A DNA stretch of 33,379 nt. Source: Actinomycetota bacterium. Its GTDB lineage: Bacteria > Actinomycetota > Actinomycetes > Nanopelagicales > Nanopelagicaceae. Both the position numbers and the translations under genes were made by a program. The stretch covers positions 1-33,379 of the forward strand of contig JBEGVX010000007.1 of the NCBI GenBank assembly GCA_041178105.1, in the 5' to 3' direction. This document shows, piece by piece, positions 29,005 to 32,516 of the stretch. Each line of letters begins with the position of its first letter. The first letter of the stretch is position 1. The notes under the pieces were generated by a model that was given only the letters and a program-made list of their open reading frames with translations, searched no databases and was not told the DNA's origin.

Positions 29005-30918
29005 CTACTTCACTTCGATGGTTATTACAGAATTAGGCTGAACGAGTGAGCCCTCACCTGGATTCACCTTGACTACCGTTAATTTCTTACCTTTTGGCAC
29101 CTTGGCTGGTTTGAGAACTTTGACAGAGAAGCCATAATCCTCGAGAAGTTTGATCGCTTTCATCTCTTCGCTTTTGAGCACTCCACTTGGAACTTTGATT
29201 TTCTCTGGACCTTTCGAGACTGTCAGAGCGACATCTGCTCCTTTTGCCAATTCAGGTTCGGTTGGGCTCTGTGCAATCACCGTTCCAATGGGGTATTTGT
29301 CACTGAACTCTTCCGTTTGTTTGACATCAAAGCCAGCTTCGGTGAGTTCATTTAGGGCTTGTTCATAATTTTTTCCGATGTAATTGGCGACGGCTACTAG
29401 CTCTGGCCCCTTACTAATCAGAAGGTTCACTTCACTGTTTTTCTTGACCATTGTCCCCGAGGTGGGTGAGCTAGAAATAATTTGATCCTTTGGAATTTTC
29501 GCGTCGAATTTAGACTGAGTGGAGCCGATGACTAATTTAACATTTGCTAATTCAATAGATGCCTGTGAAACGTTTTTACCTTTCAAGCTAGGCACCTTGT
29601 AGCGCTCGGCACCTTTGGATATTAAAATCGAAACACTCTCTCCTTCAGCAAGCCTGCTCCCAGCAGGAGGATCCATGCTGATGATTTTTCCTTTTGGAAT
29701 CTGCTCATCGAAGAGAGATTTCGATACCTTGACCTTAAATCCAAGTTTTCCAAGAGTTCGTTCCGCCTGTTGCTTTGTGCCGCCGATTACAGATGGGATT
29801 GCAATCTGTGAGCCTGGCCCGAAGAGTTGATACCAACCAGCTATTCCGATTGCGCCTGCGATTGCGAGCGCGACTAATCGATTCCGTCGAACTCGTCGCG
29901 AACTGCGCCTTCTAATTTGTCCCGAGTTATTAATTTGAGGATTAGTCATTTCACGCGGCACGCTCGCTACTGTAGCGCTCTTAATTTTCGATTTTTTAGA
30001 TTTAATTTCGCGCGCTGGCCTGCGGAGCTCCTCTGGAATTCCAAGGGGGAGGCTTAATTGCTGCTCATTGGGATCGAGAATGATTAGAGACTTGCGGATA
30101 TCGTCCTGAAATTCACGGGCGTTTTGGTAGCGCAATCCAGGGTCGGGAGTAGTGGCTCTTAGTACGAGGGTATCGATATCTCTAGTGATTGCGTTGTTGA
30201 GGGTGGATGGAGCCGGCACACGATCATGAACATGGCGATAGGCGATCTGAATTGGAGAATCACCTTCATATGGCTTCTTTCCGGTCAACATCTCAAAGAA
30301 GACGATTCCGAGAGAGTAGATATCACTCTTCTCATCAGCGATGCCACGTTGCACTTGCTCAGGGGCTAAATAGCCAACAGTCCCCATTAATACATTTGCA
30401 TCTGCCGTTAGCGTATTTCCAGTGCTAACGGCGCGAGCTAATCCAAAATCGCCAAGCTTCACCCGGCCATCGGCAGTAATCATGATGTTCTCAGGTTTGA
30501 TATCGCGATGAATGATTCCACGATGATGTGCATACGTCAGAGCAGAGAGCACTTGATCGAGGATTCCGAGCGCCTCTTTCGGATCTAACTGTCCAACGGC
30601 GAAAAGATGGTCACGCAAGGTTGCGCCAGGTATGTACTCCATAACGAGGAAGACTGCTGGAACGCCACCTTGATTCCATCCTTGGTCATAAACTTGAACG
30701 AGGTTGGGATGGGATAAACCTGCGGCAGCTTTTGCCTCGCGGATAAAACGAGATACGAACTCTTCATCAAGTGCGAGATTTTCGTGCATGATTTTGACTG
30801 CAACAGTGCGATCAAGGCGGGTATCAACAGCGGAATAGACCGTTGCCATTCCACCACGAGAGATAGCGCTCGTTATCTCATAGCGTCCATCAATGAGTTC
30901 GCCAATTCGCTCCGACAC
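29005..30918 (-). CDS. pknB: PASTA-domain Ser/Thr protein kinase (PknB/Stk1 family; PknL-like locus)
   Basis: GGMATVY, VAVK, HRDIKPEN, DFGLA, GYLAPE, one TM segment and about four PASTA repeats. TAGAAT -10 lies 6 nt before the GTG start. Confidence 0.92.
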   Translation of the reverse strand: MSERIGELIDGRYEITSAISRGGMATVYSAVDTRLDRTVAVKIMHENLALDEEFVSRFIREAKAAAGLSHPNLVQVYDQGWNQGGVPAVFLVMEYIPGATLRDHLFAVGQLDPKEALGILDQVLSALTYAHHRGIIHRDIKPENIMITADGRVKLGDFGLARAVSTGNTLTADANVLMGTVGYLAPEQVQRGIADEKSDIYSLGIVFFEMLTGKKPYEGDSPIQIAYRHVHDRVPAPSTLNNAITRDIDTLVLRATTPDPGLRYQNAREFQDDIRKSLIILDPNEQQLSLPLGIPEELRRPAREIKSKKSKIKSATVASVPREMTNPQINNSGQIRRRSSRRVRRNRLVALAIAGAIGIAGWYQLFGPGSQIAIPSVIGGTKQQAERTLGKLGFKVKVSKSLFDEQIPKGKIISMDPPAGSRLAEGESVSILISKGAERYKVPSLKGKNVSQASIELANVKLVIGSTQSKFDAKIPKDQIISSSPTSGTMVKKNSEVNLLISKGPELVAVANYIGKNYEQALNELTEAGFDVKQTEEFSDKYPIGTVIAQSPTEPELAKGADVALTVSKGPEKIKVPSGVLKSEEMKAIKLLEDYGFSVKVLKPAKVPKGKKLTVVKVNPGEGSLVQPNSVITIEVK

Positions 30919-30943
30919 TCTGAAATTCTATGAAAATAGCGGC

Positions 30944-31510
30944 TCAGGTGTTGGCAGGCGCTCCGTAGGGTAGATGTAATGTGCAATTCGCTCGATTCTG
31001 ATTCTGAGAAAAGAATTCTTTTTGCCGAGCAATCCAAGTGAGCATCTCCTTTTGGATATGCGTTCCATCTCGTTTTAAGACTCGCTCAAGTCCAAGTTCA
31101 ACGGGAATGTCCATCCAAATTGAAAGCTGCGCTGCGGATGCAACGCTCGGTAAGGCGCATCCCACCCCCTCAAGAATGATTAAAGGTGTCGCGGGTACCG
31201 TAATTCTCTCGCTGTAGCGCCCTGCTATCCAGTCATACTTCATGTACTGGACCGGCTCCGAACTATGTATCGGGTTGATGATCCCTTCGATGATTGTTCG
31301 CTCGAGCGTGGGGGTTAACGCATCCTCCCAGCCGTTGTATAAATCGTCGCAATGAATAATCTCGCCATACCCGAAAGTTGTCACTATCTCTTGAGCGAGA
31401 GTTGTTTTGCCTGCCCCAGCTGGTCCATCAATGATAATTAAAGCAGGAGGTGCGCTCGCACTTCTGTTGTGCAGTAGCGCAGTTATGCTATTGAGGAGAT
31501 CGTGCTGCAT
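30944..31510 (-). CDS. P-loop small-molecule kinase (uridine-kinase-like fold), substrate unknown
   Basis: IIIDGPAGAGKTTLA, IHCDDLY, YDW, IILEGVG, RVLKRDG; overlaps the upstream Pnu transporter by 23 nt. Confidence 0.8.
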   Translation of the reverse strand: MQHDLLNSITALLHNRSASAPPALIIIDGPAGAGKTTLAQEIVTTFGYGEIIHCDDLYNGWEDALTPTLERTIIEGIINPIHSSEPVQYMKYDWIAGRYSERITVPATPLIILEGVGCALPSVASAAQLSIWMDIPVELGLERVLKRDGTHIQKEMLTWIARQKEFFSQNQNRANCTLHLPYGAPANT

Positions 31511-32066
31511 TTTTATACCAACGGACCCAACCTAATATCGCTACTCCGGTGAAAATTAAGTAGACCAGAGAGGTGAAATATGCCTCACCACGGAAATACT
31601 GAATAGTGAGCACGATGTCGACGGCAAACCAGAGCGCCCACGTCTCCCATTTCTCTTTGACCATAATTACTTGCGCGATGAGACTGCCTAGTAGCCCAAA
31701 GGTGTCGCTCCAAATTGCAACAGCCCCAACTGATTTCAAGTAAGGCGCGAAGGCGAGCCAGCAAGCTGCAAATGCGAGAACAACAATTGCTCGACCCTTG
31801 AAGGAGAGGCTAGTTGGTTCTGCACCACTTTTTTTCCATGCAAACCAACCCCAGATACCGAAGGTAACGAAGATAAGTTGAGTAGCAAAAGATGCGAAGT
31901 ACTTGGCATCAAAGAACCAAATTGCATAGAGCGCAGAGCTTGCAATCCACCACGGCCACATCACTTTTCGTCCGGTAGTTCCCAGGTAGACAGCTATCAA
32001 CGAGGTGACGGCCGCTACGAATTCTAAAAGCGAAACTTGGTAGTTCCATGCGGTAAAGAGAATCAT
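31488..32066 (-). CDS. pnuC: PnuC-family vitamin transporter (probably thiamine-type PnuT)
   Basis: Multiple TM segments, GIWGWFAW, D(TF)...Q...WALWFAVD (WxxWxxxD), GWVRW. The start is ATG 32066 after SD GGAAGGGG, downstream of a TPP-like aptamer. Confidence 0.88.
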   Translation of the reverse strand: MILFTAWNYQVSLLEFVAAVTSLIAVYLGTTGRKVMWPWWIASSALYAIWFFDAKYFASFATQLIFVTFGIWGWFAWKKSGAEPTSLSFKGRAIVVLAFAACWLAFAPYLKSVGAVAIWSDTFGLLGSLIAQVIMVKEKWETWALWFAVDIVLTIQYFRGEAYFTSLVYLIFTGVAILGWVRWYKNAARSPQ

Positions 32067-32069
32067 CGG

Positions 32070-32155
32070 TACCCCTTCCAAATCCGCATTACCGGACTGG
32101 TTCTAACGGTCGGTGGCGTGCCACCCTCTCAGCCGTACTTCGGCTCCCGTGCAAT
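32070..32155 (-). ncRNA. TPP-riboswitch-like aptamer with variant P4/P5 internal loop
   Basis: RNA reads ACGGGAGCCGAAGUACGGCUGAGAGGGUGGCACGCCACCGACCGUUAGAACCAGUCCGGUAAUGCGGAUUUGGAAGGGGU. Elements: P2 ACGG/CCGU, P3 AGCCG/CGGCU, UGAGA, hairpin GGUGGC/GCCACC, P4 CCA/UGG, P5 UCCG/CGGA with loop GUAAUG. Confidence 0.85.
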
Positions 32156-32159
32156 TGAA

Positions 32160-32169
32160 AGGATAGCAT
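32160..32169. promoter_or_regulatory. Overlapping divergent -10 hexamers
   Basis: Minus-strand TATCCT (32165-32160) precedes the aptamer; plus-strand TAGCAT (32164-32169) lies 5 nt before ATG 32175. Confidence 0.5.
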
Positions 32170-32174
32170 TAGCT

Positions 32175-32516
32175 ATGCTCAAGTTCGGCTATCTGGCAAT
32201 GATTGCCTTTACGGTTGCTGGCTCATTCTGGCTTGAAATTTTTTTGAAAGTGGGAGTACTACGACGAATTAAACGTGTACTTCTGAGCATCCTGCCCGTC
32301 GCAACTCTTTTCATCATCTGGGATCTCTATGCAATCAGTAGAGGGCATTGGCATTTTGACAGCAAACAGATCCTTGGCATCTTCGGATTTGGCGGCATCC
32401 CACTGGAAGAATTTCTCTTCTTCACGGTAGTCCCATTAGCTGCAATCATGACGATTGAAGCGGTCGGAGTAGTGAAGCGAAAAAACAGCAAATGGAAGTT
32501 TGGTGATGAGAGGTGA
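32175..32516 (+). CDS. crtYc: Heterodimeric lycopene cyclase subunit (CrtYc type)
   Basis: Small membrane protein with IWDLYAI..GHWHF and GIPLEEFLFF. Start reassigned to ATG 32175. Confidence 0.85.
   Translation: MLKFGYLAMIAFTVAGSFWLEIFLKVGVLRRIKRVLLSILPVATLFIIWDLYAISRGHWHFDSKQILGIFGFGGIPLEEFLFFTVVPLAAIMTIEAVGVVKRKNSKWKFGDER

Follow-up and report, generated by a model that had tools for sequence, protein, structure and literature searches.

The P-loop kinase gene that overlaps a Pnu-type transporter gene in the window (the whole stretch of 33,379 nt analysed, whose host is taken as an acI-type actinobacterium) is predicted to encode a non-orthologous thiamine kinase, which would trap the thiamine imported by PnuT as TMP for ThiL. 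We assign this reading a probability of about 0.7. A kinase of this kind had been suggested in the initial annotation, and the suggestion was supported by a hole in the thiamine pathway, by the replacement of a biosynthetic locus, and by a second kinase clade linked to ykoEDC. In the available text of Kang et al. 2017 (PMC5301498), acI are described as the most abundant freshwater bacteria and as thiamine auxotrophs. No enzyme is annotated for the first thiamine phosphorylation in acI, and the kinase is a testable candidate for closing this gap.

In the proposed mechanism, the transporter would bring in thiamine, the kinase would phosphorylate it to TMP using ATP, the P-loop, and Asp55 as the base acting on the hydroxyethyl OH, and housekeeping ThiL would turn TMP into TPP. 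The transporter and kinase genes would be expressed from one translationally coupled message. The leader RNA, having lost its pyrophosphate pocket, may read the total pool of thiamine, TMP, and TPP, and its ligand-bound form would hide the ribosome-binding site.

The riboswitch-led transporter and kinase unit

All features of the unit lie on the minus strand. The transporter gene (31488..32066, ATG at 32066, stop at 31488, 192 aa) and the kinase gene (30944..31510, 188 aa) share a 23-nt overlap (31488-31510) and are preceded by a TPP-type leader matching RF00059 (32069..32155), which bears out the anatomy initially described. The predicted −10 of the unit, TG-n-TATCCT (32160..32168), was assigned by sequence and by conservation: 98 of the 102 different sequences upstream of the leader RNA had TAnnnT at a distance of 7-14 nt, TATCCT being the window version. 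The PASTA Ser/Thr kinase gene farther downstream (29005..30918, GTG start at 30918, NF033483 above the cut-off) was correctly credited with its own −10, TAGAAT (30925..30930), 6 nt before the start codon. Of 80 different sequences upstream of this start, 74 had TAnnnT at the same distance and 79 had it at 5-7 nt, a spacing that fits a leaderless promoter. This −10 was absent from the output of a generic sigma-70 scan, whose single promoter-like site, within the kinase gene, was rejected as being at chance level. None of the RNA contigs spanned the pnu-kinase junction, which was counted against the thiamine-kinase reading; the runs covered only small shares of the stretch.

The Pnu protein scored 123 bits with PF04973 and above the cut-off of TIGR01528, and contained the WxxWxxxD/N motif as WALWFAVD; the role of WxxWxxxD in Pnu proteins is treated in the available text of PMC5749112. 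Together with the TPP-type leader and thiamine context of the locus, these features indicate that it is likely PnuT, a predicted thiamine facilitator. As far as the same text (PMC5749112) extends, Shewanella PnuT transports thiamine, accepts neither TMP nor TPP, and relies on trapping, in agreement with the initial statement that Pnu proteins are facilitators dependent on a cognate kinase. Imported thiamine therefore has to be phosphorylated, yet no kinase was annotated for this step. A second Pnu paralogue was observed directly behind an amidohydrolase-like gene without an FMN riboswitch (G000:C172:2507-3082), and a second Pnu match was present in many genomes of the family.

The RF00059 match (32059-32160) scored 46.2 bits (E 5.5e-8), and because the gathering score is 54.3, the default Rfam scan returned no match in the window. 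All 19 relative loci that were scanned had the same sub-threshold match, with 36.7-46 bits. The CUGAGA pyrimidine sensor (32132-32127) and the L5 loop were intact, but the P4/P5 internal loop, which forms the pyrophosphate pocket (G60, A61, C77, G78), was lost in all 26 family loci located by way of their kinase gene. In these 26 loci, ACC-UGA-UCYG...CRGCG-H-AGG was replaced by ACC-RR-UYYG...CRRA and a variable 3′ strand; the canonical ACC-UGA-UC arm (5′ GA) was kept in all 49 pattern-matched ykoE leaders, out of 58. We take the missing positions to be the equivalents of A61, C77, and G78. In the available part of a recent preprint (bioRxiv 2025.01.21.634073), A61, C77, and G78 bind Mg2+ and the β-phosphate. 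The initial annotation was right that a riboswitch leads the unit and missed that it is a variant without this pocket.

MFE folding of the leader alone was not above shuffles (z −0.71), so its structure rests on covariation. In P2, P3, P3a, and P5, 94.7% of the cells were paired, against 17-43% in slid controls, and 11 pairs had two-sided changes; P4 had weak covariation support. Compared with the canonical TPP riboswitch, the acI leader has the sensor, P2, P3, P3a, P5, and L5, which it also shares with the P4-P5 mutants of McCown et al. 2017, and differs from RF00059 in lacking the A61/C77/G78 equivalents and the P4/P5 internal loop, in its variable P4, and in its sub-gathering score of 37-46 bits. 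McCown et al. mention, in the text available, that P4-P5 mutant TPP variants bind thiamin, TMP, and TPP alike (PMC5473149).

A variant model built from the family, R1, gave the window leader 88 bits and, in 109 of the 121 order-level genomes, found a match of 64 bits or more. In five of five complete relatives there was one TPP-like element per genome. Searches for the acI variant in viral contigs and in 150 other genomes of the phylum did not find it; in these genomes, the best matches had 49-59 bits and the 11 inspected were of another type. With transcription beginning at the predicted start, P1 would have little of its 5′ strand, and a Shine-Dalgarno-like GGAAGGGG (32072..32079) overlaps the 3′ strand of P4; together, these features suggest translational shut-off. 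The Breaker laboratory has reportedly described thiamin/TMP-preferring TPP variants around 2025.

Other altered arms were observed elsewhere. TPP leaders ahead of ThiB-like ABC genes in acI (L326, L331, L341, L343, L347, L349) had P5 mismatches of their own, such as CCACCACAGG in L326, perhaps through a separate decay of the pocket. The TPP P4/P5 arms of the non-acI Actinomycetota loci L357, L358, L359, and L363 were shortened in other ways, for example ACCUGUAAGGUAAUGCUUGCGUAGG and ACCGGCCUGG, unlike the acI type.

The kinase family and its homologues

The kinase has the P-loop GPAGAGKT, and its best family match was PRK06547 with 105 bits (104.9) against a cut-off of 173, while PF00485 scored 26 bits; judged by the PRK06547 score, it is a relative rather than a member of the PRK06547 equivalog. 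It scored far under the cut-offs of the curated udk models (40.8 vs. 180 and 34.8 vs. 220), did not match the ThiK models TIGR02721/NF007620 at E 0.01 or the ThiN/TPK model PF04263, and fell below every curated cut-off searched. The claim that it differs from ThiN and ThiK therefore held. The AlphaFold model (pLDDT 95) matched UCK2 best (Z 17.1, rmsd 2.4, 163 aligned), and the uridine-kinase-like P-loop fold stated at the outset was borne out at the level of this predicted structure. Further fold matches were a putative fructose-system kinase (Z 16.9), PanK (16.7), Thermus UDK (16.5), PRK (16.1), Geobacillus RBSTP0775 (1rz3, Z 16.0), and NRK1 (Z 11.4), with sequence identities of 13-24%. The fold, the Walker A motif, and an acidic base after strand 2 correspond to the UK/PRK/PanK/NRK superfamily. 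The best fold matches mostly phosphorylate a primary alcohol, and thiamine has one, which was counted for the thiamine-kinase reading.

In an alignment of 61 sequences, the P-loop, D55, G60, W61, W94, E114-G115-x-G117, R143, R147, and F167 were invariant, and both thiamine-linked clades kept D55, Y58, G60, W61, W94, EGxG, W132, D148, and W159. Unlinked homologues also kept the aromatic pocket motif, so it is no marker of thiamine; f27 homologues differed at Y58/G60/W61. Fold, P-loop, catalytic Asp, and EG motif are common to UCK, PanK type I, NRK1, PRK, 1rz3, and PRK06547, whereas the pocket of the window kinase (Y-x-G-W, W94, W132, W159) is its own. By profile alignment to 3asy/3w8r, the UDK segment YDHPDAF was missing from the kinase, and a variable column stood opposite Y93/H93 of Thermus UDK. 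In UDK, YDHPD is the ribose segment and the His/Tyr is the base selector.

The profile search retrieved 2,920 kinase-family representatives at E ≤1e-10, and an Atlas search with the kinase returned only unnamed or PRK/AAA_18 clusters. Homologues were present in 82 of 190 other class genomes, but only 5 of these 82 non-family genomes had a thiamine neighbour, which was counted against the thiamine-kinase reading. At the ykoE loci, a homologue directly followed ykoC in 6 of 58 cases (5 of the loci being incomplete), in families f36, f40, and f48, and a canonical TPP leader was found for 4 of these 6 ykoEDC-kinase loci. The unpublished genomes G070 and G064 enter the denominators of the class-genome and ykoE counts only. 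The ykoEDC-linked homologues were 21-25% identical to the window kinase. In a quick, unrooted tree, in which row L030_v is a bad fragment, they formed one clade (support 96) that included 8 unlinked or unplaced rows; this clade was widely separated from that of acI (support 94) by about 70 unlinked rows. Two distant branches of the family thus stand behind two unrelated TPP-regulated transporters, pnu and ykoEDC. Examination of the neighbourhoods of homologues, as initially proposed, therefore added a second distant clade, but most homologues lacked a thiamine context.

The unlinked homologues had scattered gene contexts, apart from 13 loci in three families (L177, L205, L208, L267, L285, L316, L317, and six more) where a homologue lay directly behind a 410-aa BhcC/alanine-racemase-domain gene. 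This linkage points to a possible second function of the kinase family.

Pathway hole and locus replacement

The order-level sample comprised 121 genomes, all of one family. thiL was found in 118 of the 121 and ThiK over the cut-off in none of them; ThiN was found in none of five complete relatives and none of ten family genomes of the class sample (14 in total, one being shared), nor in the window's own genome. The inventory of thi genes proposed in the initial annotation thus spoke in favour of its kinase, since it revealed a hole between thiamine and TMP. Weak ThiK-like matches in 40 of the 121 genomes were rejected as ThiK, being choline-kinase-like PF01633 proteins; four such loci examined had, by inspection, a GcvT-like or glycine-metabolism context without a TPP element. 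Likewise, PF04263 matches in 106 of 201 class genomes were rejected as ThiN because they were confined to the initial 40-60 positions of the model; almost all of them lay in frames of roughly 400 aa or longer. We presume them to be SteA-like. No ThiN anticorrelation could consequently be built, and true ThiN was about absent from the class sample.

The window's own genome (71% complete) had no tblastn match to 12 thi-related queries, and its lack of thiL is probably due to this incompleteness; it contained a homologue of the TPP-dependent 2-oxoglutarate dehydrogenase. Among the five complete relatives, Upp was present in all and ThiE over the cut-off in none. HMP, initially considered as a possible substrate, is unlikely here, given that searches for thiE and thiD found neither. 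Two acI-family genomes (L327, L330) had a TPP-led thiC-thiM-thiE-thiD without thiG, which implies thiazole salvage.

The kinase was present in 119 of the 121 genomes and thiG in 2 of the 121, the same two that lacked the kinase. This contrast comes from one genus and one event, kin are not independent, and the point was counted against the thiamine-kinase reading. These two g7 genomes kept thiE and had a canonical TPP leader, thiO, a ThiS-like ORF, and thiG before the PASTA kinase gene and nfo. The arrangement TPP leader-thiO-thiG-PASTA kinase-nfo also occurred in three of three f27 genomes examined (12 regions in all), and the scaffold of the window leader matched the thiO leader at the same locus. 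TPP-controlled thiOSG, which the initial annotation had placed at this locus in Streptomyces, was thus recovered both within the window's family and outside it, and its suggestion that salvage has replaced biosynthesis gained support, since the RNA-pnu-kinase unit replaces thiOSG at the same locus. The PASTA kinase is a marker of the ancestral thiOSG locus, outside the salvage function. The locus may be viewed as a record of the swap from thiamine synthesis to scavenging.

A pattern scan for the variant leader retrieved at least 119 loci. Among the matches listed, pnu and then the kinase followed wherever 1.5 kb or more of downstream sequence was present (72 of 72 variant-RNA loci), and the PASTA kinase was present in 64 of these 72. 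Since only 64 of 72 had the PASTA kinase (see also L196), RNA-pnu-kinase also moves without it. Twelve of the 121 genomes had no R1 match of at least 64 bits; two were the prototroph-like ones, and ten had lost the leader and pnu and kept the kinase. Nine of these ten had a ThiB/ThiP-like ABC transporter (five by TIGR01254, four by likeness) and one had ykoED and thiCMED, all behind TPP leaders, which was counted for a thiamine role. Retention of the kinase after loss of pnu and leader in ten genomes also fits a housekeeping role. A variant leader directly before the kinase in G279 (L325) was not accepted as support, since it proved to be a decayed leader next to a pnu gene that deletion had reduced to a short remnant; this genome has a ThiBP-like ABC transporter, with transporter replacement in progress.

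Alternative readings, novelty, and neighbouring genes

A reading as an ordinary nucleoside (uridine/cytidine) or sugar kinase, whose gene settled between pnuT and the PASTA kinase gene and plays no part in B1 metabolism, would account for the uridine-cytidine kinases being the nearest solved folds, for the "uridine kinase" label that sources give to many homologues, for the lack of a thiamine context in most of them, and for retention of the kinase after loss of pnu. We nevertheless regard it as unlikely, given the udk scores (41 vs. 180, 35 vs. 220), the missing YDHPDAF segment, the variable column at Y93/H93, and the Upp already present in the five complete relatives; it also leaves the ykoEDC linkage and the thiamine-to-TMP hole unexplained. 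The hole itself could instead be filled if ThiL or a different kinase accepted thiamine as a secondary substrate.

Import, phosphorylation, and sensing, by the remodelled leader, of another vitamer (HMP, nicotinamide riboside, or an analogue or degradation product of thiamine) appears quite improbable. In its favour, the Pnu gene scores as PnuC, NRK1 has the same fold (Z 11.4), the leader has lost its pocket nucleotides, and in the available text of Rodionov et al. 2019 YkoEDC2 is assigned to B1 but YkoEDC to HMP (PMC6593275). The intact pyrimidine sensor and L5 argue for thiamine, as do the scaffold matching the thiO leader and the position of the leader as the sole TPP-like element in five of five complete genomes; HMP would be unusable without ThiE/ThiD, and P4-P5 mutants have been reported to bind thiamin, TMP, and TPP alike (PMC5473149). 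We give still less weight to a different thiamine step, either two successive phosphorylations that take thiamine to TPP or a TMP kinase activity redundant with ThiL. It draws on the same context evidence as a thiamine kinase, but ThiL is kept in 118 of 121 genomes, which fits a need for ThiL in the TMP-to-TPP step, and the DD/EGxG fold family acts on alcohols, not phosphates.

As a thiamine kinase, the protein would complete a unit that by its sequence features is like the PnuT-ThiK/ThiN trapping modules, with a kinase that falls outside the ThiK, ThiN, and udk families. The PnuT-ThiN/ThiK, PnuC-NadR, and RibM/PnuX-RibF modules, as described in the available text of PMC5749112, resemble the acI unit in the WxxWxxxD facilitator, the co-located kinase gene, and the TPP-type leader; the acI kinase differs in its UK/PRK P-loop fold, being neither ThiN (PF04263) nor ThiK (TIGR02721). 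E. coli ThiK catalyses the reaction predicted here, from thiamine to the TMP used by ThiL, but belongs to the APH/choline-kinase family, with no homology to the window kinase. Kang et al. 2017 described a THI element upstream of the acI pnuC gene, which they interpreted as PnuT (PMC5301498), so that the leader and transporter of these auxotrophs were already in print; the kinase is not mentioned in the available part of that paper, which describes salvage enzymes as nearly all missing. The initial annotation missed that this leader and transporter had been published. As for the kinase, we did not find the family named as a thiamine kinase in the literature searched, which consisted mostly of non-subscription main texts (curated databases may hold such a name).

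If the assignment is true, many annotations that now read "uridine kinase," "cobalt ABC transporter," or "hypothetical" would be corrected, and the kinase would serve to trace B1 salvage in metagenomes from lakes. Other actinomycetes, for which the class sample contained almost no true ThiN, may owe their salvage of B1 to the same family. A bolder and rather doubtful extension is that the PRK06547-like family is the missing thiamine kinase of all Actinomycetia, unrelated to ThiK/ThiN, and that the pocket-less riboswitch, passive transporter, and trapping kinase of acI form a minimal device that took over the thiOSG locus.

On the other side of the unit, divergent −10s overlap at 32160-32175, with TATCCT (−) for the riboswitch unit and TAGCAT (+) for a lycopene cyclase gene. 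They appear to form a compact two-way promoter, and the lycopene cyclase gene (ATG at 32175) appears to be leaderless. Two small lycopene cyclase genes (PF18916, 32175-32824) converge on a phytoene synthase gene, an arrangement found in most, not all, relative loci.
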